DNA from: an uncultured delta proteobacterium | GTDB lineage: Bacteria; Myxococcota_A; Polyangia; Polyangiales; Polyangiaceae | Direction of reading: 5' to 3' | Assembly (NCBI GenBank): GCA_963782055.1 | Contig: CAWAIF010000003.1 | Span: 6,144,001-6,208,000 of the forward strand | DNA: 64,000 nt | Made by a program: the position numbers and the translations under genes | Notes under the pieces: generated by a model | The model's input: only the letters and a program-made list of their open reading frames with translations | What the model was told of the DNA's origin: nothing | Database searches by the model: none | Shown: positions 10,084 to 63,317 of the stretch, in pieces | How the letters are laid out: the number at the start of each line of letters is the position of its first letter | How positions within the stretch are numbered: position 1 is the first letter of the stretch

Positions 10084-10833
10084 TCACAAGACGACCACGT
10101 TGTCGAAGTCGACCGCCCTGCCGAGGGCCAGCGTCACGTCGTCAACGATGCCGATGGCGAGCTCGGAGCCCGAGGTGACGCCGACGCCGATGGGGCCCAC
10201 CATGTTGTTGTCGTACTTGATGCCAATCAATCCCGGGCTGCAGAGGACGGTGATGGTGTGCCACATGGCGTCCGTCGCGCTGGCCAGGCCCACCACCCCT
10301 CCCTTGTCGTCCTTGACGTGGACGCCCTGGCCATCCACGGAGAACGTCAGCGTCCCGGTGGGGTCGGTGATGCGCATGAAGTCGGCGGCGACGCTGCCGG
10401 AGACGAAGCGCGCGTTCACGGTGATGGTCTTGGGGCTGGTCGTGATCTTCTCCGTCACCGCCGCGTGCTGACCCACCCCCGAGACCTTCGCCTCCATGGC
10501 GTTCGGATCAGAGAGCGGGTTGGTCTGCACCACCGCCAGGGTCCCCCCGTTGACGTCCTGCGCGTCCCACTTCATCGCGGGGTTGCTGCCCTCGTCCCAG
10601 TCGGCGCAGAAGATGGCCTGCGGGTGCGACGCGCAGTACCCCAGGTCGGGCGCGTCGGGCTGACCGCCGCCGTCGTCCGCGTCGACGGCGTCCGCGCCCG
10701 CGTCGTCCGGCGCGGCCTGGTCCGGCTCCTCCGCGGCGTCGGAGCCCCCGGCGTCGCCGCTGCTCCCGAAGGAGTCGGGCCCGCACGCGGCGGTGAGCAA
10801 GAGCACGAGCACGACGGACGAAGGAAGGCGCAT
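10084..10833 (-). CDS. Hypothetical lipoprotein
   Basis: MRLPSSVVLVLLLTAAC lipobox, D/A/G-rich linker, FCADWDEG motif, beta-rich C-terminus. Confidence 0.75.
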   Translation of the reverse strand: MRLPSSVVLVLLLTAACGPDSFGSSGDAGGSDAAEEPDQAAPDDAGADAVDADDGGGQPDAPDLGYCASHPQAIFCADWDEGSNPAMKWDAQDVNGGTLAVVQTNPLSDPNAMEAKVSGVGQHAAVTEKITTSPKTITVNARFVSGSVAADFMRITDPTGTLTFSVDGQGVHVKDDKGGVVGLASATDAMWHTITVLCSPGLIGIKYDNNMVGPIGVGVTSGSELAIGIVDDVTLALGRAVDFDNVVVL

Positions 10834-10868
10834 ACCGACGAGTATAGCGCCACGGGGGCGCGCGGGCC

Positions 10869-11102
10869 TCAGTGCATGGCGAGCCCGAGGAAGTAGGGCC
10901 ACACGATCAGCGCCAGGAGCGCCTTCCACCACACCAGCTTGAGCAAGCCGAGGGTGAACAGCCAGCCGCCGAACCAGAGCGTGCCCGCGAGGGGCGGCCC
11001 CGGCCGGAGGCGCGCGGACCGCTCCGCGCGTGCCCTGGTCTTGCGCTCGGTGGGCTCGACGTGGACGTCGATGTGAGGGAGAGCGGGAGTCTGGGTGGTC
11101 AT
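10869..11102 (-). CDS. Small membrane protein
   Basis: 77 aa ending GTLWFGGWLFTLGLLKLVWWKALLALIVWPYFLG. Confidence 0.65.
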   Translation of the reverse strand: MTTQTPALPHIDVHVEPTERKTRARAERSARLRPGPPLAGTLWFGGWLFTLGLLKLVWWKALLALIVWPYFLGLAMH

Positions 11103-12581: not shown

Positions 12582-12632
12582 ACGGCCGTCCCGCTTGACG
12601 AAGGCCGCTTGCGGTACCAGATTGTCCGGACC

Positions 12633-13829
12633 ATGCCTCCGAAGACCTACAGCGACCTGCTGGCCGACACCAAGAAGCGCATCCAGGAGGTCTCCCTCGA
12701 CGAGCTCAGGCGCCGGCTGGACGCCGGCGAGCCGGTGGTGCTCGTCGACGTGCGGGAGAAGGAGGAGTACCGCGCCGGCTTCATCCCGGGCGCCATCTCG
12801 GTGCCGCGCGGCTTTTTGGAGCAGCAGATTGAGCAGAAGGTCCCGGACAAGACGGCGCGCGTGGTCGCCTACTGCGCCGGCGGCGTGCGCAGCGCCTTCG
12901 CGGCGGAGACGCTCGCGCAGCTCGGCTACGTCAACGTGGAGAGCGCCAACCCCGGCTTCGTCCGGTGGAAGGACCTCGGCCACCCCATCGACCATCCCCC
13001 CCAGCTCACCGAGTCGCAGCGCGACCGCTACTCCCGCCACATCCTCTTGCCGGAGGTGGGGGAGGCCGGGCAGGTCAAGCTGCTCAAGTCGAAGGTGCTG
13101 CTCCTCGGCGCCGGCGGCCTGGGCTCGCCCGCGGCGCTCTACCTGGCGGCGGCGGGCGTCGGCACCCTCGGGATCGTCGACGCCGACGTGGTGGACGCCT
13201 CCAACCTGCAGCGGCAGATCCTCCACGCCACCAGCCGCGTCGGCATGCCCAAGGTGGAGAGCGCGGCGAAGGCCATCGCCGACCTCAACCCCGACGTGAA
13301 GGTGATCCAGCACAGGGAGCGGATGACCAGCGAGAACGTGGAGCGCCTCTTCGCCGGCTACGATCTGGTCGTCGACGGGACGGACAATTTCCCGACACGC
13401 TACCTGGTCAACGACGCGAGCGTGTTCCTCGGCAAGCCTGTCGTGCACGGGTCCATCTTCCGCTTCGACGGCCAGGTGACGACCTTCGTGCCGAAGAAGG
13501 CGGCGCTCAAGTTCGGGGTGCCGGAGAGCCCGTGCTACCGGTGCCTGTACCCCGAGCCGCCGCCGCCGCACCTGGCGCCGAGCTGCCAGGAGGCGGGGGT
13601 GCTCGGGATCCTCTGCGGCATCATCGGCACCCTGCAGGCGACGGAGGCCATCAAGCTGATCCTCGGCAAGGGCGACGTCCTCGGCGGGCGCCTGCTCACC
13701 TACGACAGCCTGAAGATGCGCTTCCGCGAGCTGCGCCTGCGCAAGGACGCGGCATGCCCGGTGTGCGGCCCGAAGCCGAGTATCACCAGGTACGTGGACT
13801 ACGAGGGGTTCTGCGCGCTGGGGGCGTGA
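12633..13829 (+). CDS. moeB: Rhodanese + ThiF/MoeB adenylyltransferase (MoeZ-type)
   Basis: N-terminal rhodanese YCAGGVRS; RYSRHILL, GAGGLG, SNLQRQ, DGTDNF, CYRC...CPVC. Confidence 0.9.
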   Translation: MPPKTYSDLLADTKKRIQEVSLDELRRRLDAGEPVVLVDVREKEEYRAGFIPGAISVPRGFLEQQIEQKVPDKTARVVAYCAGGVRSAFAAETLAQLGYVNVESANPGFVRWKDLGHPIDHPPQLTESQRDRYSRHILLPEVGEAGQVKLLKSKVLLLGAGGLGSPAALYLAAAGVGTLGIVDADVVDASNLQRQILHATSRVGMPKVESAAKAIADLNPDVKVIQHRERMTSENVERLFAGYDLVVDGTDNFPTRYLVNDASVFLGKPVVHGSIFRFDGQVTTFVPKKAALKFGVPESPCYRCLYPEPPPPHLAPSCQEAGVLGILCGIIGTLQATEAIKLILGKGDVLGGRLLTYDSLKMRFRELRLRKDAACPVCGPKPSITRYVDYEGFCALGA

Positions 13830-13840
13830 TCCCGTAGTCC

Positions 13841-14665
13841 CTACTTCTGGCAGGCGCCCGTCACGCACTGCATCCCGAAGAACACGCAGTTGGTGCAGCC
13901 CTGTCCGCCCGAGCCGCAGGCGAAGGGCTGCGTGCCGACCGCGCAGACGCCGTCGGTCGTGCAGCAGCCGGCGCAGGTCTCGGGACCGCACGGCGGCCCC
14001 GCGTCGGAGCACACGCCGCCTCCACCGTCGAGGAGCTCGCAGTGGCCGGAAGCTTGGGCCGGGTTGCACCGCAGGCACGGCTCGCCCCCATGCCCGCAAG
14101 CGTTGTCGTGGCGCCCGGAAGCGCAGTACTCATCGCTGTCGCCGAAGCAACAGCCGTCGCAGTTCGCCGAGTTGCACGGCCCGCCCGTGGGGTAATAGCA
14201 GGTTGCGCCCTTGCAGATGTCCTCCTTTGGGCACACCTCGCATGGCTCGCCGTAGCCTCCGCACACCCAACCGGCATCGACGTCTGCGGGCCCCTGATAG
14301 CAACCGCCATCAGGGACACAGCAAGACTTCGGGCACGTGGCGAAGCCGCACCCGGCCGGGGTGACGTCCGGCTCGGCATCGACGCCCCCCTCACCGTCGA
14401 CGCCGGCGTGTGCCTCCTGCGAGCCGTCCGCAGCCGTGCCATCGAGGATGGTTCCATCCTCCGAAGCGTCATTGATCTCGTGGAGATACAGGCCCGTTCG
14501 GCTTCCGCACCCCTGCCAGCAGAGCGCCATGAAGCACGCCCCCGCGATCGCGAGGAAGCCCCATCGGCGCGGCGTCCCCATCAGCCCCATCAGAGGAGCG
14601 CCGCGCCAACCGGTCTGCATAGGCCAACGCGGAGCGTTCAATTCGTAAGGGTGACGCTGTCGCAC
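13841..14665 (-). CDS. Cys-rich lipoprotein, cassette 1 gene B (start uncertain)
   Basis: GCGSRTGL motif, D/A/G linker, repeated C..CxGCC...C..G....ACG..G..C units. Confidence 0.8.
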   Translation of the reverse strand: MRQRHPYELNAPRWPMQTGWRGAPLMGLMGTPRRWGFLAIAGACFMALCWQGCGSRTGLYLHEINDASEDGTILDGTAADGSQEAHAGVDGEGGVDAEPDVTPAGCGFATCPKSCCVPDGGCYQGPADVDAGWVCGGYGEPCEVCPKEDICKGATCYYPTGGPCNSANCDGCCFGDSDEYCASGRHDNACGHGGEPCLRCNPAQASGHCELLDGGGGVCSDAGPPCGPETCAGCCTTDGVCAVGTQPFACGSGGQGCTNCVFFGMQCVTGACQK

Positions 14666-15279
14666 GGGGAGCCACCGCAGAGATTCGTATTCGCGCAGAG
14701 ATCTCCGCCACTGAAGGACACCTTCGTCCCCCAGGCGCTATTCTCGAAGTAGCCATCCTCCCCGCCCGGCAGCGAGCCAGGGTAGTACGAGTACACGTTG
14801 TTGGACCAGTAGACCCAGAAGCAGGTGGGGGACCCGAGACAGAACTGATCACTATCAAGATTCTCTGTACCCTGCCCGGCGAGACAAAGCCGCGCGAAGC
14901 TGCCCGAAGTAGGGCAGTTACTCACATCGTAGACCCAGAGGTCGCTGTACGCACAATTGGGGTCCCCCGAGATCGCCGCCGACTGCTGGGCCACTGCTTC
15001 CCCACCGCCGGTCACGCTCGTGCCTGGATCGGGCTGAGGCGCAGGTTGGTGGTTGAGGAACGCCTTCTTCGCGGCCAGCTCCCTCGCGTATTGTTCGGGT
15101 GACGCGACGTAGTGGTACGTGTGCAGCTTCCCGTCGGGCCCGACGCGGATCACCGTCGTGTCCACGCCGTCGGTGGGCGGCGTCGCCCCACCCGAGGAAC
15201 ACCCGGCTCCGACGAGAACACCCACCGCGACCATCGCGAGCACACCGATCCAGCGTCCAGAAATCTTGTTCTTGACCAT
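14638..15279 (-). CDS. Secreted lipoprotein, cassette 1 gene A
   Basis: GAGGT RBS then MVKNKISGRW...GAGC; propeptide-like segment ending QQSAAI; Cys-containing C-terminal domain. Confidence 0.85.
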   Translation of the reverse strand: MVKNKISGRWIGVLAMVAVGVLVGAGCSSGGATPPTDGVDTTVIRVGPDGKLHTYHYVASPEQYARELAAKKAFLNHQPAPQPDPGTSVTGGGEAVAQQSAAISGDPNCAYSDLWVYDVSNCPTSGSFARLCLAGQGTENLDSDQFCLGSPTCFWVYWSNNVYSYYPGSLPGGEDGYFENSAWGTKVSFSGGDLCANTNLCGGSPCDSVTLTN

Positions 15280-15298
15280 CTTGCACCTCACAGGATTG

Positions 15299-16798
15299 GT
15301 CTCTGCTTAGCGGCCGGAAGACGGCCCGCGGCCCGGGCGTGACGTCGACCGTCGGAGGACTCGCCGGCTAGTGGGCAAAGACAGACGGAGGCGGCTTGCC
15401 GTGGAGGTGACTTTCGTACAGCCCGATGACGAAGCCCCGAAGCGGGAGCCGGCACTTGCGCCGCGTCTGCGTGATGCTCATCCAGTGCGCCAGGGTGGCG
15501 CTGCCGGCGGCCGAGCGCGTTCCGCCGGTCATCGCGCGGTGCCGCCCGTGGGCGCGGATGTCGCGTTCGGTCGCGTTGTTCGTGGCCGGGACGTCGGGGC
15601 GGTCGATGAAGAGCGTCACCCCCACCTTGTGCTCGTCGAGGCGCTCCTGCAGCCGGACGATGTCCGGGAACTCCACGAAGTTGGTGCTGCTGATGAGATG
15701 GCCGAGGCGGATGCGCGCGCCTCGGCGCTGCTCGGGATCGCCGCTCGCCGCGGCGTGCTTGCCCGCGACGTAGAAGCCGATGAGTCGGTCGCGGCGCACG
15801 GGGTGAGCTCGGCGATCTTCTTGGCCTCGCGGATGGTGTGCGCACCGCAGTAGGCGTGGGTCCAGCCGTCGTGACTCGTGTACACGCCGTAGAAGTCGGT
15901 GCACAGGACTCCTTTGAAGCTCGCGCCGAGCATCGACTCGGCGACCCACGCGCCGCGCGACAGCTCGGCGCGGAAGACCGAGACGCGGTCGGTGCGCATC
16001 AGCCACATCCAACCCGGCACGCCGTCCTGTCGATGGCCGCTCTCGTCGAGGCCCGCCACGGGCGATGCGCGCACCGCGTCGACCAGCTCGTCGTAGCTCG
16101 GCGCCGAGCGGCGTCGCAATCGGTCGAACATCTGCGCCAGGCCGCCGGTCGTGATCGAGATGCCGAGCCACTGTCCGAGGAACGCACTGATCTTGCCCAG
16201 CGGCATGTCGCGCTCGAAGCGCAGGTCCAGCGCCATCGCCTGCACGTTGGGGCCGAACGACACCGCGGCGACGCTCTTGCCCGCCGCCGGCGCGCCCGGC
16301 AGCTTCGCGACCACGCGCTTGTGGCACACCTCGCAGCTGCCGACGTGCGCCACGTGATGCGTCTGCCGCGGCTGCACCACTGGGATGTCGGTGACGACTG
16401 TGCTGTCCGTCTCGCCCGTCGCCACGACTGCCCCGCCACAGCTGCACGTCGCCGGCATCTCGTGCACGACTTCGTCGTCGACGTGGGCCGGTGCGGCGGG
16501 CCGCGATCCGACATGGCCCACCTTGCGGCCGCGCGGCTTGCCCGAGGGCGCCCGCCGACCCTCGGAGCGCGACGTCCGCCGCTTCCCGCGCTCCCGGAAC
16601 CCGCGCTTCCACTCCTCGATCTCCTTGCGCAGCTTCGCCAGCTCTTCGCGAAGCGCGGCGTTCTCCTGCTCCAGCTCCTGGATCCGCTGCTCGGGCGTCA
16701 CGTGATCCGGGATGCTCCCGATCAGGCCCCATGGAAAGAACTTCTCGCATCAGGAACGAAGAATGGACCCACAGTGTGCGACACCGCTAAGCAGACAC
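15299..16798 (-). mobile_element. IS66-family element (single ORF), transposase frameshifted
   Basis: IRs GTCTCTGCTTAGCGG / GTGTCTGCTTAGCGG; 8-bp TSD CAGGATTG; 16-bp deletion near 15795 relative to intact copy 57898..59247. Confidence 0.9.
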
Positions 16799-16845
16799 CA
16801 GGATTGTGCCCCCCCCCCGCGTCGCCGCGGGATGAGTGCACCGCG

Positions 16846-16917
16846 ATGACAGCACCGCCGGCTGAGCCGTGCAAGGGGAAAAGGACGCAGGCGAGACCAC
16901 TACCAGCTAGCGGGTAG
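16846..16917 (-). promoter_or_regulatory. Conserved cassette promoter and palindromic operator (unit 1)
   Basis: TTGCAC-17 bp-TGTCAT on minus strand; CTACCAGCTAGCGGGTAG palindrome at 16900-16917; conserved in five places. Confidence 0.55.
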
Positions 16918-17007
16918 ATCGTTTGCCCCGCTCGCCTGGCCCATGCGGTCGAGGCCGGTCCACCTCGCTGATGGCCCCCTGCGTCAGAGCTGCCAGGAGG
17001 GGGGTCG

Positions 17008-17111
17008 GCGAGCTGCGCCTGCGCAAGGACGCGGCGTGCCCGGTGTGCGGCCCGAGGCCGAGCATCACCAAGTACGTGGACTACGAGGGCTTCTGCGCGC
17101 TGGGGGCGTGA
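17008..17111 (+). repeat. Duplicated moeB 3' end (copy a)
   Basis: Encodes ELRLRKDAACPVCGPRPSITKYVDYEGFCALGA*, nearly identical to the moeB end. Confidence 0.95.
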
Positions 17112-17122
17112 CCGCGTAGTCC

Positions 17123-17941
17123 CTACTTCCGGCAGGCGCCCGTCACGCACTGCATCCCGAAGAACACGCAGTTGGTGCAGCCCTGTCCGCCCGAGCCGCA
17201 GGCGAAGGGCTGGGTGCCCACCGCGCAGACGCCGTCGGTCGTGCAGCAGCCGGCGCAGGTCTGGGGGCTGCACGGGGGGCCCGCGTCGGAGCACACGCCA
17301 CCGCCGCCGTCGAGCAGCTCGCAGTGGGCGGAGCCCAGCTTCGGCTTGCACAGCGAGCACGGCAGACCGCCGTGCCCACACGCGTTGTCGTGTCGTCCGG
17401 AGGAGCAGTAGTCGTTTCCGTAGCAGCACCCGTCGCAGTTGGAGGGGTTACACGGACCATCCGTATTGATCAAACAGGATTGGCTCTTGCAGAAATAGCC
17501 CTTTGGGCACGTCTCACACGGCTCGCCGAAGCCCCCACACACCTGATGGTCCGGATCTTGGGGCCCCTGGAAGCAACCGCCGTCCGGGAGACAGCAAGTC
17601 GAACAAGTATCGAAGCCGCAACCGGTGGGGATGACGTCCGGCTCGGCGTCGACGCCTCCCTCCGCATCGAGGGCGGCGTCGGTCTCCTGCGATGCGTCCC
17701 GCGCCGCGCCATCGAGGATGGTTCCATCGTCCGATGCATCGCTGACGTCGTTGAGATACAGGCCCGTTCGACTTCCGCAGCCCCACCACGAGACGGACAC
17801 GACGCACGCCCCGGCGATCATGAGGAATGCCCATCGGCGCGGCGCCTCCGTCGGGGGAGCGCCGCGCCGACCATTCCGCGGAAGCCGCCGGGCAGCGCTC
17901 AATTCGTGAGGGTGAGGGTGTCGCACGGGGACCCACCGCAC
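17123..17941 (-). CDS. Cys-rich lipoprotein, cassette 2 gene B (start uncertain)
   Basis: Paralogue of 13841..14665 with the same GCGSRTGLY motif and C-terminus. Confidence 0.8.
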   Translation of the reverse strand: MRWVPVRHPHPHELSAARRLPRNGRRGAPPTEAPRRWAFLMIAGACVVSVSWWGCGSRTGLYLNDVSDASDDGTILDGAARDASQETDAALDAEGGVDAEPDVIPTGCGFDTCSTCCLPDGGCFQGPQDPDHQVCGGFGEPCETCPKGYFCKSQSCLINTDGPCNPSNCDGCCYGNDYCSSGRHDNACGHGGLPCSLCKPKLGSAHCELLDGGGGVCSDAGPPCSPQTCAGCCTTDGVCAVGTQPFACGSGGQGCTNCVFFGMQCVTGACRK

Positions 17942-18189
17942 AGGTTCGTGTTCGTGCAGTTATCTCCACCACTGAAGTACACCTTCGTCCCCCACGCCGT
18001 ATTCTCGAAGTATCCGTCCTCCCCGCCAGGGATACTACCCGGCCAGTACGAGTACACGTTGTTGGACCAGTACACGGTGAAGCAGGTTCCACCGCTGCAG
18101 AGCAAGAACGTGTCGTTGTCGAGGTTCTCCGTACCCTGACCCGCAAAGCAGACCCGCATCCAGCGTCCAGAAATCTTGTTCTTGACCAT
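17899..18189 (-). pseudogene. Cassette 2 gene A with in-frame internal deletion
   Basis: MVKNKISGRW fused directly to RVCFAGQG; signal and pro-region missing. Confidence 0.8.
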
Positions 18190-18244
18190 CTTGCACCTCA
18201 GAGGATTGTGCCCCCCCGCGTCGCCGCGGGATCAGTGCACCGCG

Positions 18245-18316
18245 ATGACAGCACCGCCGGCTGAGCCGTGCAAGGGGGAAATGACGCAGGCGAGACCACT
18301 ACCAGCTAGCGGGTAG
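18245..18316 (-). promoter_or_regulatory. Conserved cassette promoter/operator (unit 2)
   Basis: Same TTGCAC-17-TGTCAT and CTACCAGCTAGCGGGTAG. Confidence 0.55.
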
Positions 18317-18405
18317 ATCGTTTGCCCCGCTCGCCCGGCCTACGCGGTCGAGGCCGACCCACCTCGCTGACGTCCCCCTGCGTCAGAGCTGGCGGGAGGT
18401 GGGTG

Positions 18406-18513
18406 TTCCGCGAGCTGCGCCTGCGCAAGGACACGGCATGCCCGGTGTGCGGCCAGAAGCCGAGCATCACCAGGTACGTGGACTACGAGGGGTTCTGCAC
18501 GCCGGGGGCGTGA
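18406..18513 (+). repeat. Duplicated moeB 3' end (copy b)
   Basis: FRELRLRKDTACPVCGQKPSITRYVDYEGFCTPGA*. Confidence 0.95.
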
Positions 18514-18526
18514 TCGCTCTGACTTA

Positions 18527-19225
18527 CTACTTGCTGCACACCTGTTCGACGCAATGCGTCCCGTGAAAGACGCAATCGTCGCAGGCGACACCGCCCTTGC
18601 CGCAGGCGAACGGCTGCGTCCCGATGGCGCAGGTGCCGTCTGCCGTGCAGCACCCGGGGCAGTTGTCCGGGGAGCATGGGGGCGCGGCGTCGAGGCACTC
18701 GCCTCCGCCCGCTTCCAGAGGCGTGCACGGGTCGCACGCGTCGCAGTGCCCCCCCCCGTGACCACACGCCCGCGCGTGGATGCCGCTCGCGCACCAGTCG
18801 GTTCCTTGGAAGCAGCAGCCCTCGCAGTTGGACGCGTTGCACGGGCCGTCCGTGAAGTGGAAGCACGTGCCCTGCTTGCAGTACCCGGCCTCGGGACACG
18901 TCTCACAGGCCTCTCCGTGGTCGCCGCACTGCGACTGGTTTGGTTGGGGCTCGATGCACGTCCCGTCCGGCGTGCAGCACCCCTTCTCGCAGGTCGCCAG
19001 GCCGCACCCGCCCTCCGCGCCGCCGTCGACATCCATGTTGGAGTCGGCGTCGGCTTCGGCTTCGGGTGCGTCGCCGAACCCATCTTCCGCAACTGTACCG
19101 TCCACGGCGCCATCCTGAACGAGGCCCCCCCCGAGCCCCGTTCGACTACCGCATCCACCGATGCCGAGGTCGACGGGCAGCGCGGACGCCAGCGCAACGA
19201 TGAGCAGACGATGCCAGCGCACCAC
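18527..19225 (-). CDS. Cys-rich lipoprotein, cassette 3 gene B (second subtype)
   Basis: GCGSRTGL; C-terminus CSPDNCPGCC...GTQPFACGKGG. Confidence 0.8.
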   Translation of the reverse strand: MVRWHRLLIVALASALPVDLGIGGCGSRTGLGGGLVQDGAVDGTVAEDGFGDAPEAEADADSNMDVDGGAEGGCGLATCEKGCCTPDGTCIEPQPNQSQCGDHGEACETCPEAGYCKQGTCFHFTDGPCNASNCEGCCFQGTDWCASGIHARACGHGGGHCDACDPCTPLEAGGGECLDAAPPCSPDNCPGCCTADGTCAIGTQPFACGKGGVACDDCVFHGTHCVEQVCSK

Positions 19226-19244
19226 GATCGCCTTGTCGGACCGA

Positions 19245-19871
19245 TCAGTCGGTCAGCACCAGCGTGTCGCAGTCACCACCAGGGTTGCAGAGGTTGGTGT
19301 TGGTGCATCCCTGATTGGCACTGAAGCTCACCTGGGTTCCCCAAGCATTGTTCTCGAAATACCCAACCTCCGATCCGGGGGAGAACGAGTACACGTTGGC
19401 GTCCCAGTACACATAGAAGCAGCTTCCACCGCAGATGTAGAAGCCCTGGTTGTCGAGATTCGCCGTTCCCGAGCCGTTGAAGCAGATGCGGGCGGAGCCA
19501 CTGCCGGGGCATCCGCTCTGATCGTAGACCCAGAGATCACCGCCCGCGCAGGTCACCACCGAGATCGCCGCCGACTGCTGGGAGACGTCTTCCCCGCTCC
19601 CCGTGACGCTCGTGCCCGGATCGGGTTGCGGCGCAGTCTCGTGGTTGAGGAACGCCTTCTTGGCTGCCAGCTCCCTCGCGTACTGCTCGGGGGACGCGAC
19701 GTAGTGGTACGTGTGCAGCTTCCCGTCGGGCCCGACGCGGATCACCGTCGTGTCCACGCCGTCGGTGGGCGGCGTCGCCCCACCCGAGGAACACCCGCCT
19801 CCGACGAGGACGCCCACCGCCACCATCGCGAGCACACCAATCCAGCGCCCAGAAATCTTGTTCTTGACCAT
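19245..19871 (-). CDS. Secreted lipoprotein, cassette 3 gene A
   Basis: N-terminal ~75 aa nearly identical to cassette 1 gene A; C-terminal domain divergent. Confidence 0.85.
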   Translation of the reverse strand: MVKNKISGRWIGVLAMVAVGVLVGGGCSSGGATPPTDGVDTTVIRVGPDGKLHTYHYVASPEQYARELAAKKAFLNHETAPQPDPGTSVTGSGEDVSQQSAAISVVTCAGGDLWVYDQSGCPGSGSARICFNGSGTANLDNQGFYICGGSCFYVYWDANVYSFSPGSEVGYFENNAWGTQVSFSANQGCTNTNLCNPGGDCDTLVLTD

Positions 19872-19934
19872 CTTGCACCTCACAGGATTGTGCCCCCCGC
19901 CCCCCCGCGTCGCCGCGGGGGGGGTGCAGTCCCG

Positions 19935-20015
19935 ATGACAGCACCGCCGGCTGAGCCGTGCAAGGGGAAAGGACGGGAAAGGACGCCGACGGGACCACTA
20001 CCAGCTAGTGGGTGG
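19935..20015 (-). promoter_or_regulatory. Conserved cassette promoter/operator (unit 3)
   Basis: TTGCAC-17-TGTCAT; CTACCAGCTAGTGGGTGG. Confidence 0.55.
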
Positions 20016-20119
20016 ATCGTTTGCCCCGCTCGCCTGGCCTACGCGGTCGAGGCCGGTCCACCTCGCTGACGTCCCCCCGCGTCAGAGCCGCGAGGAGGCG
20101 GGGATCCCCGAGCCACGCG

Positions 20120-20215
20120 TGCGCAAGGACGCGGCGTGCCCGGTGTGCGACCCGAACGAAGCCGAGCATCACCAGGTACGTGGACTACGAGGGGTTCTGC
20201 GCGCTGGGGGCGTGA
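20120..20215 (+). repeat. Duplicated moeB 3' end (copy c, decayed)
   Basis: RKDAACPVC...KPSITRYVDYEGFCALGA* with a small insertion. Confidence 0.9.
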
Positions 20216-20226
20216 TCCCGTAGTCC

Positions 20227-20985
20227 CTACTTCTGGCAGGCGCCCGTCACGCACTGCATCCCGAAGAACACGCAGTTGGTGCAGTCCTGCCCGCCCGAGC
20301 CGCAGGCGAAGGGCTGCGTGCCCACCGCGCAGACGCCGTCGGTCGTGCAGCAGCCGGCGCACGTTTCCGGGTCGCAAGGCGGGCCCGCGTCGGAGCACAC
20401 GCCACCGCCGCCGTCGAGCAGCTCGCAGTGACCGGAACCTTCGGCCGGGTTGCAGCGCAGGCACGGCTCGCCCCCATGCCCGCAGGAGTTATCGTGTCGG
20501 CCTGTGGAGCAGTAGTCGTTGCCGTAGCAGCAGCCGTCGCAATTCGAGGGGCTGCACGGCCCGTCGGTAGCGCGCAAGCAGCTGCCCTTGCAGAAGAACC
20601 CTGCGTCCACATCACACTTCTCACACGGCTCGCCGTAGCCGCCACATGCCTGGTTCCAGTCCTTCTGCGGCAGGACACACTGACCATCGGACGCACAGCA
20701 ACCGTCTGGACAGGTCTGGAAGCCGCAACCTGTCGGGATGACGTCCGGCGCCGCGTCGACGCCGCCCTCCGCATCAAGGTTGGCGTCTGCTTCCTCTGAG
20801 CCGTCGGCGGCACCATCGGGGACCGTGCCATCGGCCGAGGCGTCGCCGATCTCGTTCAGATACAAACCAGTACGGCTTCCACACGCTTCTACACCGAGGA
20901 CCCAGATAGCGACACAGGTACACACGGACAGGAGCGTCAGAGCGGTAGGGGACCTCGGCAGCATGCGTTTCGGCACCACGCCCAC
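20227..20985 (-). CDS. Cys-rich lipoprotein, cassette 4 gene B
   Basis: ACGSRTGLY; C-terminus nearly identical to cassettes 1 and 2. Confidence 0.8.
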   Translation of the reverse strand: MGVVPKRMLPRSPTALTLLSVCTCVAIWVLGVEACGSRTGLYLNEIGDASADGTVPDGAADGSEEADANLDAEGGVDAAPDVIPTGCGFQTCPDGCCASDGQCVLPQKDWNQACGGYGEPCEKCDVDAGFFCKGSCLRATDGPCSPSNCDGCCYGNDYCSTGRHDNSCGHGGEPCLRCNPAEGSGHCELLDGGGGVCSDAGPPCDPETCAGCCTTDGVCAVGTQPFACGSGGQDCTNCVFFGMQCVTGACQK

Positions 20986-20990
20986 CTCAA

Positions 20991-21625
20991 CTAGTTGGTG
21001 AGCGTCAAGTAGTCGCAGTCTCCGCCCGGGTTACAGAGGTTCGTGTTGGCACAGCTGGTGTTGCTGCCTCCACTGAATGACACCTGGGTGCCCCACGCAC
21101 CATTCTCGAAATATCCGTCCTCGGTCCCCGGCCAGTACGAGTACACGTTGTGGGACCAGTACACGCTGAAGCAGGTGCCACCGCTGCAGAGCAAGAACGT
21201 GTCGTTGTCGAGGACCTCCGTACCTTGCCCGTAGAAACACACTCGCGCGAAGGTGCCCGAAAGAGGGCAGCTGCTCACGTCGTAGACCCAGATGTCGTTC
21301 GGGTCGCAGCCACTATCCTTGGTGATGGCGGAGGCCTGTTGCCCCACGGCTTCCCCCCCAGCCGTACCTTGCGGCAAATCGGCGGCCCGCGCACGCGGGT
21401 CGAGCACGTGCTTCTTCGCCGCCACCTCCCGCGCGTACTGCTCGGGGGAGGCGACGTAGTGGTACGTGTGCAGCTTCCCGTCGGGCCCGACGCGGATCAC
21501 CGTCGTGTCCACGCCGTCGGTGGGCGGCGTCGCCCCACCCGAGGAACACCCGCCTCCGACGAGACGCCCACCGCCACCATCGCGAGCACACCGATCCAGC
21601 GCCCAGAAATCTTGTTCTTGACCAT
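20991..21625 (-). pseudogene. Cassette 4 gene A, 1-bp deletion in signal region
   Basis: CCGACGAGACG at ~21562 versus CCGACGAGGACG in unit 3; rest of ORF intact. Confidence 0.75.
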
Positions 21626-21684
21626 CTTGCACCTCACAGGATTGTGCCCCCCCCCGCGCGTCGCCACGGGATGGGTGCACCCCG

Positions 21685-21745
21685 ATGACAGCACCGCCGG
21701 CTGAGCCGCGCAAGGAGAAAGTGCTCACTACACCCTAGTGGGTAG
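21685..21745 (-). promoter_or_regulatory. Conserved cassette promoter/operator (unit 4)
   Basis: TTGCGC-17-TGTCAT; CTACACCCTAGTGGGTAG. Confidence 0.5.
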
Positions 21746-21791
21746 ACCATCTGTCCCACCCGCTCGGTCGACCCTGACCAGCTAGTTTGCT

Positions 21792-21952
21792 AGGGCGACG
21801 TGCTGGGCGGGCGCCTGGTCACCTACGACAGCCTGAAGATGCGCTTCCGCGAGCTGCGCCTGCGCAAGGACGCGGCGTGCCCGGTGTGCGGGCCGAAGCC
21901 GAGCATCACCAAGTACGTGGACTACGAGGGGTTCTGCGCGCTGGGGGCGTGA
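21792..21952 (+). repeat. Duplicated moeB 3' end (copy d, longest)
   Basis: 161 bp, GDVLGGRLVTYDSLKMRFRELRLRK...CALGA*; differences from moeB mostly synonymous. Confidence 0.95.
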
Positions 21953-21979
21953 TCGGGGCGTGATCGCCGCGACTCCCTG

Positions 21980-22610
21980 CTATTTGGTGCACACCTGGTT
22001 GATGCACTGGGTGCCGTGGAAGACACAGTCGTCGCAGACGATACCTCCTTTTCCGCACGCGAACGGCTGGGTTCCGACGGCGCATGTACCATCTGTCGTG
22101 CAGCATCCGGGGCAGTTGTCCGGAGAGCACGGCGGGGCGGCATCGGCGCACTCGCCGCCGCCCGCCTCGAGAGGCGTGCACGGGTCGCACGCGTCGCTGC
22201 CGGATGCGGCAGTCGGACGGGCCTCGGATCGGGGTACCTCCGGGACGGCGGCATGGATGGCACCGTGGCGGACGATGGAATCGGCGACGCACCCGCCGAC
22301 GCCGCCGGCGAGTCAGATTCGGAGATCGACGGTGGCGCGGACGGCGCGTGTGGCCCGCAGACATGCGCCGACGGGACATGCGTCGATTCGCACCACTACA
22401 GCAACGCGGCATGCGGCGACCACGGAGAGGCATGCGAGACATGTCCCGACTCCGACGCCGGCTACTACAGCGCGCAGGGTACGTGTCTCCACTTCACGGA
22501 CGGGCCGTGCAACCCATCCAACTGCGACGGCTGCTGCTTCCAGCAGACAGACTGGTGCGCGAGCGGCATCCACGCGCGGGCGTGTGGTCACGGAGGGGGC
22601 CACTGCGACG
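21980..22610. pseudogene. Cassette 5 gene B, partly inverted and truncated
   Basis: C-terminus on minus strand (21980-22197); middle part GCGSRTGL...GHCD on plus strand (22198-22610); paralogue of 18527..19225. Confidence 0.85.
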
Positions 22611-24128
22611 GTCTCTGCTTAGCGGCCGGAAGACGGCCCGCGGCCCGGGCGTGACGTCGACCGTCGGAGGACTCGCCGGCTAGTGGGCAAAGGCAGACGG
22701 AGGCGGCTTGCCGTGGAGGTGACTTTCGTACAGCCCGATGACGAAGCCCCGAAGCGGGAGCCGGCACTTGCGCCGCGTCTGCGTGATGCTCATCCAGTGC
22801 GCCAGGGTGGCGCTGCCGGCGGCCGAGCGCGTTCCGCCGGTCATCGCGCGGTGCCGCCCGTGGGCGCGCGGATGTCGCGTTCGGTCGCGTTGTTCGTGGC
22901 CGGGACGTCGGGGCGGTCGATGAAGAGCGTCACCCCCACCTTGTGCTCGTCGAGGCGCTCCTGCAGCCGGACGATGTCCGGGAACTCCACGAAGTTGGTG
23001 CTGCTGATGAGATGGCCGAGGCGGATGCGCGCGCCTCGGCGCTGCTCGGGATCGCCGCTCGCCGCGGCCTGCTTGCCCGCGACGTAGAAGCCGATGAGTC
23101 GGTCGCGGAACTCCTCGGTCGCGGCGCACGGGGTGAGCTCGGCGATCTTCTTGGCCTCGCGGATGGTGTGCGCACCGCAGTAGGCGTGGGTCCAGCCGTC
23201 GTGACTCGTGTACACGCCGTAGAAGTCGGTGCACAGGACTCCTTTGAAGCCCGCGCCGAGCACCGACTCGGCGACCCACGCGCCGCGCGACAGCTCGGCG
23301 CGGAAGACCGAGACGCGGTCGGTGCGCATCAGCCACATCCAACCCGGCACGCCGTCCTGTCGATGGCCGCTCTCGTCGAGGCCCGCCACGGGCGATGCGC
23401 GCACCGCGTCGACCAGCTCGTCGTAGCTCGGCGCCGAGCGGCGCCGCAATCGGTCGAACATCTGCGCCAGGCCGCCGGTCGTGATCGAGATGCCGAGCCA
23501 CTGTCCGAGGAACGCACTGATCTTGCCCAGCGGCATGTCGCGCTCGAAGCGCAGGTCCAGCGCCATCGCCTGCACGTTGGGGCCGAACGACACCGCGGCG
23601 ACGCTCTTGCCCGCGGCCGGCGCGCCCGGCAGCTTCGCGACCACGCGCTTGTGGCACACCTCGCAGCTGCCGACGTGCGCCACGTGATGCGTCTGCCGCG
23701 GCTGCACCACTGGGATGTCGACGACGACCGTGCTGTCCGTCTCGCCCGTCGCCACGACTGCCCCGCCGCAGCTGCACGTTGCAGGCATCTCGTGGAAGAC
23801 TTCGCCGTCGACCTGGGCCGGTGCGGCGGGCCGCGATCCGACATGGCCCACCTTGCGGCCGCGCGGCTTGCCCGAGGGCGCCCACCGACCCTCGGAGCGC
23901 GACGTCCGCCGCTTCCCGCGCTCCCGGAACCCGCGCTTCCACTCCTCGATCTCCTTGCGCAGCTTCGCCAGCTCTTCGCGAAGCGCGGCGTTCTCCTGCT
24001 CCAGCTCCTGGATCCGCTGCTCGGGCGTCACGTGATCCGGGATGCTCCCGATCAGGTCCCATGGAAAGAACTTCTCGCATCAGGAACGAAGAATGGACCC
24101 ACAGTGTGCGACACCGCTAAGCAGACAC
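22611..24128 (-). mobile_element. IS66-family element copy 2, transposase frameshifted
   Basis: Same IRs as copy 1; 2-bp insertion near 22867; flanks CTGCGACG / CCGCCAAC do not match (no TSD). Confidence 0.9.
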
Positions 24129-63098: not shown

Positions 63099-63108
63099 AA
63101 GCAGACAC

Positions 63109-63167
63109 GACAGCACCGCCGGCTGAGCCGCGCAAGTGGGAAACGGTCACTACACACTAGTGGGCAG
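63109..63167 (-). promoter_or_regulatory. Orphan fifth copy of the cassette promoter/operator
   Basis: GACAGCACCGCCGGCTGAGCCGCGCAAG and CTACACACTAGTGGGCAG; -10 cut by the IS66 end AAGCAGACAC (63099-63108). Confidence 0.7.
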
Positions 63168-63317
63168 GCCCGTTTGCCGCTCCCGGCTCCGGCTACCCGG
63201 CTAGTCCGTTGATCTTCGTCAGCACACGCCCCAGCGGGAAGCACCGTCCTCGCACCGTCGCACCGGTCGAGGCGCGTTCGTTGACACGGTCGGCGGTCGC
63301 CTGGCGACCCATGGCAG

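Follow-up and report, generated by a model that had tools for sequence, protein, structure and literature searches.

The 3' end of moeB in an uncultured delta proteobacterium of the Polyangiaceae (assembly GCA_963782055.1) is followed by a tandem array, in which copies of that 3' end (tails) alternate with genes of one two-gene family, A and B, encoding predicted lipoproteins. The array lies in a 64,000-nucleotide stretch of contig CAWAIF010000003.1 (positions 6,144,001 to 6,208,000), called the window here; positions are counted from its first letter. The units of the array have a common anatomy, identity between them is block-like, and the moeB tails are far younger than the adjoining B genes. 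We consider it probable that the array grows, shrinks and swaps units by homologous recombination in a conserved block, with the moeB 3' end as the outermost anchor and probable input from relatives.

The moeB gene (12609..13829, + strand) is intact, encodes rhodanese and ThiF domains (Pfam PF00581 and PF00899) and scored above the cut-off of NCBIfam NF006444. Its 3' end and the four tails behind it head five units, each with an antisense B gene; units 1-4 additionally harbour gene A and a conserved upstream element. A first-pass annotation of this DNA had described four moeB tail copies, each with an antisense Cys-rich B gene, and the analysis confirmed them (107-166 nt, 90-95% identity to moeB). 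All four tails are on the + strand: tail a (17005-17111) has 94% identity over 107 nt, tail b (18406-18515) 95% over 110 nt, tail c (20105-20218) 90% over 114 nt with a 4-bp insertion, and tail d (21789..21954), the longest, 95% over 166 nt, with seven changes (5 synonymous, 2 conservative) and no indel. Ahead of tails a, b and c lies a remnant of moeB 13580-13601 (remnant and tail together at 16988..17111, 18387..18515 and 20085..20218); these three tails, after an internal deletion, start at moeB 13722. Their ancestor therefore held at least 250 bp of moeB, of which approximately 120 bp were lost inside. Tail d begins at moeB 13666, and the upstream element ahead of it is of another variant. 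The whole 7.58 Mb genome contained no further moeB-end copies. As a genome-wide control, 11 of 6695 open reading frames (ORFs) had a short downstream copy of their own end, and a stricter scan gave 7 tail-only cases among 5085 ORFs; several copies were present at moeB alone.

Identity between units was 90-100% in the 5' end of A, the upstream element (units 1-3) and the tail, versus 45-80% in the A domain and in the 5' and middle parts of B. The conserved block spans approximately 550-750 bp and comprises the A 5' end, the upstream element and the moeB tail, plus the B 3' end in type I units. B genes are of type I in units 1, 2 and 4 and of type II in units 3 and 5; in type II units, identity to moeB ends 2-3 bp past the stop codon. 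Fourfold sites revealed the difference in age: tails differed from moeB at 0/14 (b), 2/18 (a) and 2/18 (d) of these sites, while the 60 tail-adjoining codons of the B 3' ends differed at 13/21 (B1-B3), 16/22 (B1-B5) and 15/26 (B3-B5) (Fisher p=5e-9 for tail b versus moeB against B1-B3). Fourfold differences amounted to 3/28 to 7/46 in the A 5' part and 16/28 to 18/28 in the A domain. The moeB gene itself drifts (40-50% of its fourfold sites differ from those of six same-genus species) and yet the tails track it, indicating that the B types had split long before the tails were copied from moeB or a closely similar allele. Informative sites among units 1-4 were also clustered (37/79 adjacent alike, permutation p=0.014). 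The age gap and the block-like identity bear out the earlier proposal that the tails act as a recombination anchor. That annotation had also held that tails clustering with this genome's own moeB would point to simple local duplication. They do cluster with it (4-6 differences in 99 positions, versus 19-25 in the last 32 codons for the six same-genus moeB ends), but the far greater age of the cargo means that simple duplication does not follow. The tail data fit recombination at the tails, and on these data import from other cells and conversion within the chromosome look alike. The proportion of non-synonymous differences (pN) was below that of synonymous differences (pS) in every block, and diversifying selection gains no support.

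Several points weigh against an array that recombines at its tails and takes in units from relatives. The fourfold comparisons are subject to strong G+C bias and saturation, which blur the size of the age gap and keep its direction. Mostly synonymous changes had been taken as a sign of displaced alleles; this applies to tail d (5/7 changes synonymous) and not to tail b, in which 4/5 changes are non-synonymous and which looks like the neutral decay of a copy. Even in tail d the synonymous excess is weak, with p=0.013 under a fully neutral null and p=0.096 under the proper null, which allows for moeB's own synonymous drift. Tail decay is unordered along the array, the most distal tail being the least decayed, and on these two grounds the serial acquisition from other cells suggested earlier was not borne out. 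The incongruence between tails and B types (tail b groups with moeB and tail a with tail d) depends on two informative sites. Trees of the A and B genes, proposed as a check, gave a clear answer for A, whose four copies form one clade against outside homologues (support 100/98), but B monophyly against outside homologues was unsettled (p=0.157 in the approximately unbiased test, p-AU). No second strain was found, and gain, loss and allele exchange were therefore unobserved; no donor of the cargo was found either.

The first-pass annotation had considered that relatives might all carry the same fixed units. This was not the case: the 3-16 kb fetched behind moeB in 11 relatives, including six of the same genus, contained neither A nor B nor a tail copy, and the upstream element was not found in any of the six same-genus genomes. 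Upstream of moeB these six genomes keep the gene order, and in the studied genome synteny breaks at the moeB end. The genes behind moeB in the same-genus loci (L031-L037) map to approximately 934 kb of the studied genome and, inverted, to DNA just before the window, indicating that the moeB end is a rearrangement breakpoint. In one relative (L039), 37 bp matched the end region of its own moeB; the match lacked the stop codon and was not counted as a tail.

As six same-genus species lack the A-B module at moeB, its arrival there would belong to this lineage. The first tail may then have arisen from one or two imprecise joins of an upstream element with the 3' part of moeB, by local duplication or by anchored insertion of a relative's DNA. 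Later, tails and moeB would cross over with one another inside the chromosome and probably also with DNA of related strains carrying other A/B variants, events that would keep moeB whole, refresh the tails and change the B gene behind moeB. IS66 insertions, an inversion and deletions would now be eroding the array. The junctions combine one homologous anchor with one imprecise join that leaves a displaced end, the hallmark of homology-facilitated illegitimate recombination; the junction of a local duplication looks identical. The array also has two features of homology-block shuffling: its paralogues are tandem and non-identical, and its variable regions are separated by blocks conserved even at synonymous and non-coding sites.

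The most serious alternative, which we regard as possible and as the less likely account, is that an old tandem duplication arose locally, with its left boundary inside moeB, and was followed only by gene conversion within the chromosome, with no units from other cells. The single A clade agrees with it, as does the neutral decay of tail b. The junction is the same in tails a, b and c, which could have a common origin with tail d if separate deletions occurred, and the fifth upstream element, near 63100, is compatible with a single ancestral unit. Conversion would, however, have to strike a 110-bp patch flanked by non-homologous DNA in the type II units. Tail d, with no indel and conservative changes only over 158 bp, argues in the same direction, and the divergence of the cargo is near saturation though six same-genus species lack the locus.

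A more specific idea, which we consider unlikely, is that the array is a polymorphic, strain-specific surface-recognition or antagonism locus of Polyangiaceae-like bacteria, pairing a crystallin-fold lipoprotein (A) with a Cys-rich one (B). Candidate cognate A/B allele pairs would travel between strains, the moeB end would be a reusable entry point that needs no integrase, and B variants would be collected while the A copies are switched off. The only hint of this is that 4/5 B ORFs are intact versus 1/5 A copies undisturbed; against it, A and B are rarely neighbours elsewhere.

The first-pass annotation had likened the array to islands that integrate site-specifically, and islands or satellites integrating at the moeB 3' end through a recombinase encoded elsewhere are improbable. 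The geometry equals that of tandem islands, three tails share their left junction, and tyrosine recombinase genes lie approximately 19 and 32 kb beyond the array. Each of these nearest recombinases, however, forms a pair with an IS91-family transposase, as part of a multi-copy element. The two tail starts and the internal 120-bp deletion leave no fixed crossover core, and the four A copies, being one clade, represent one paralogue family and not unrelated captured modules. In another genus, the A-B pair lies away from moeB. The units contain no integrase and no recombinase gene other than IS66 transposase genes; to correct the first-pass annotation on this point, one such gene lies inside unit 1 and a second IS66 copy at the array end. 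Plain tandem duplication followed by independent divergence, with no later recombination (the alternative offered in the first-pass annotation), is very improbable: it provides the simplest origin of a tail, as the left end of the duplicated piece, but the tails are far younger than the adjoining cargo, which excludes duplication followed by drift alone. Non-coding tails differ by 4-6% from moeB, versus a 58-77% fourfold difference in neighbouring B codons (type II comparisons); for drift alone to explain this, the mutation rate at B synonymous sites would have to exceed that of DNA 20-200 bp away more than tenfold.

An assembly artefact is the least probable explanation; this is a metagenome-type genome and no public contig bridges the whole array, but the units are too different for mis-assembled copies (20-55% in the variable part), the contig measures 7.0 Mb with 0.29% contamination, and five pieces of the array (151-302 nt) matched short public soil contigs without differences, these contigs coming from one study and possibly from the genome's own source. 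A further 224-nt piece, at the junction of unit 5 and IS66, matched soil contigs of the same study with one difference.

The array is likely a clear example of the known diversification of gene arrays and not a new mobile system. The Staphylococcus aureus lpl cluster is also made of tandem lipoprotein paralogues with a conserved stretch for homologous recombination, and unequal crossing-over, circles and inter-strain exchange have all been proposed for it (PMC2568036). Its variable unit is the 3' part of one gene plus the 5' part of the next, corresponding here to the A domain plus the B 5' part. In lpl, the conserved stretch lies in the middle of an ORF and events were seen by strain comparison, whereas here it includes a dead housekeeping-gene end, the unit has two genes, and one genome is available. 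The esaG and tipC arrays (PMC9484751) resemble ours in their homology blocks, including non-coding DNA, between variable regions and in recombination-driven loss and expansion; those are known immunity genes beside a toxin, while A and B are likened to them in array structure. The effector-immunity displacement arrays of the Vibrio type VI secretion system have a conserved upstream anchor, 3' ends that are pushed back and no integrase, and are attributed to sequential displacement by homology-facilitated illegitimate recombination (PMC5361080). They are anchored on the effector locus itself, with modules that often bear no relation to one another, whereas moeB, on the opposite strand, anchors the array here, the modules are paralogous and there is no age order. 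Insertion with long target duplication (PMC2853133) likewise places cargo between long, variable and imperfect direct repeats without mobility genes, and some of those repeats overlap a gene 3' end. That case involves restriction-modification genes and an empty-site strain, compared with four repeats and no empty-site strain here. Our literature search, in which subscription papers were poorly covered, turned up no moeB-anchored array and no Polyangiaceae lipoprotein array.

The locus joins two known patterns, displaced gene ends and homology-block shuffling of lipoprotein paralogues, and adds an unannotated lipoprotein family with a predicted crystallin fold. As a single-genome case, the age gap between tails and cargo shows recent recombination at the end of a housekeeping gene without an integrase. 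The array would matter more if A and B were strain-specific recognition or antagonism pairs.

All A genes, upstream elements and B genes of the array are on the - strand, except for part of B5. In unit 1, B1 (13841..14620, type I) is a Cys-rich predicted lipoprotein gene with an intact ORF and a lipobox-like motif judged by eye. A1 (14638..15279), also with an intact ORF, encodes a predicted lipoprotein with a C-terminal beta-gamma-crystallin-like domain. An IS66 copy (15299..16798, - strand) with a 16-bp internal deletion lies 20 bp upstream of the A1 start, flanked by an 8-bp target duplication (15291-15298 and 16799-16806), and is followed by the conserved upstream element, the presumed promoter region (16807..16985). 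Unit 2 harbours B2 (17123..17869, type I, ORF intact, start codon uncertain), A2 (17899..18189) and its upstream element (18207..18384); an in-frame deletion of approximately codons 11-128 removed from A2 the signal peptide, the pro-region and the start of the domain. Unit 3, with B3 (18527..19225, type II, approximately 50% amino acid identity to type I), A3 (19245..19871), both intact, and its upstream element (19891..20083), is the sole undamaged unit. In unit 4, B4 (20227..20985, type I) is intact, A4 (20991..21625) has a 1-bp frameshift near codon 25, and the upstream element (21645..21788) is a divergent variant with 75-76% identity to those of the other units. The 14 IS66 copies of the genome show two indels, neither of a single base, suggesting that the assembly is accurate and that the A4 frameshift is probably real. 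Unit 5 retains the 3' part of B5 (21980..22197, type II, - strand) and its middle part (22202..22610, + strand), which is inverted, with a 6-bp sequence repeated at both inversion ends; the signal peptide and A5 are missing. Unit 5 is thus broken, as stated in the first-pass annotation, and units 2 and 4 are damaged as well. A second IS66 copy (22611..24128, - strand), without target duplication, closes the array.

The lipoprotein label of A and B relies on lipobox-like motifs judged by eye against the general consensus. The end domain of A is predicted to fold like a beta-gamma crystallin. In the model, residues 102-213 had a predicted local distance difference test score (pLDDT) mostly >90, and they aligned with 1hdf at Z 9.2 (root-mean-square deviation 2.7, 89 residues aligned), with Protein S at Z 8.2, with AFP1 at 7.9 and with 8w20_B at 6.7. 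The 30 best rows of the structure search were largely of the beta-gamma-crystallin fold, and the atlas lead for A was a crystallin/I36 cluster at 0.80. Foldseek with the A model gave weak matches, none at E<=0.001, and Pfam gave no family match in 48 A-family members. The likeness to spherulin 3a, Protein S, AFP1, DdCAD-1 and UmbB is one of fold, with sequence identity of 8-18%, and a shared fold shows no function. B had no family match, only weak Cys-rich look-alikes in Myxococcota, and a poor structure model (mean pLDDT 44.5). A and B would most likely be co-expressed surface proteins that are kept diverse for binding outside partners.

The upstream element had been described as a conserved promoter. 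The element is indeed conserved, while the promoter label is positional and a sigma-70 scan of the element gave 0 sites. An imperfect palindrome at 16907-16919, with equivalents in the other upstream elements, might be a regulator site. A scan found no terminator-like site in the tails, leaving a terminator role for them unsupported by that scan. A fifth upstream-element copy (63109..63200, - strand), cut by an ISKra4-type element, adjoins the 3' end of an EAL-like gene (labelled by eye). Approximately 39 kb of DNA rich in insertion sequences (IS) separates it from the array. This copy is probably the old far end of the moeB locus, and the IS-rich DNA (24130-63100) probably splits the original locus from that end. 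Besides further IS66 copies, ISKra4-type elements and two recombinase plus IS91 elements, this stretch contains other transposase-like ORFs that are repeated, and predicted secreted and Cys-rich genes are interspersed among the insertion sequences. Ten of the 14 full IS66 copies of the genome have their own target duplication, indicating that the IS66 copies in the array are passengers. Another copy without target duplication lies approximately 615 kb away (G000 C3 6783398), and 7/8 bases of its right flank match the left flank of the array-ending copy, a possible trace of rearrangement between copies.

A homologues were present in 15/400 genomes of the order and B homologues in 6/400. B was within approximately 1.5 kb of A in 1/19 outside A loci, and A was nearby in 0/5 of the further B loci; constant A-B pairing was thus not found outside the array. 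The one outside A-B pair lies in an island-like stretch of another genus, without moeB. Word-index protein searches recovered only this genome's A copies (3/477 candidates) and one or two outside B relatives. The alignment labelled A2 left out 7/54 matches (six short ones and one unrelated 2536-aa protein). A metagenome scan for the moeB-end pattern gave 0 matches, and scans with the B alignment gave 325 pattern matches in metagenomes and 66 in genomes, none confirmed. Public runs contained at most 20% of the window's words; placement at 80% likeness revealed no other allele downstream of moeB and left most of B1 uncovered, a result that carries no weight either way. One genome (G053; loci L072, L077 and L080) harbours three A-family genes; behind each lies a member of a different predicted lipoprotein family, similar to the window ORF 10084-10932, indicating that the partners of A-family genes vary. 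Near G000 C3 6008758, 6010685 and 6963256, the 3' ends of other genes each have one short copy downstream (117-147 bp, approximately 91-92% identity), possibly a similar scar.

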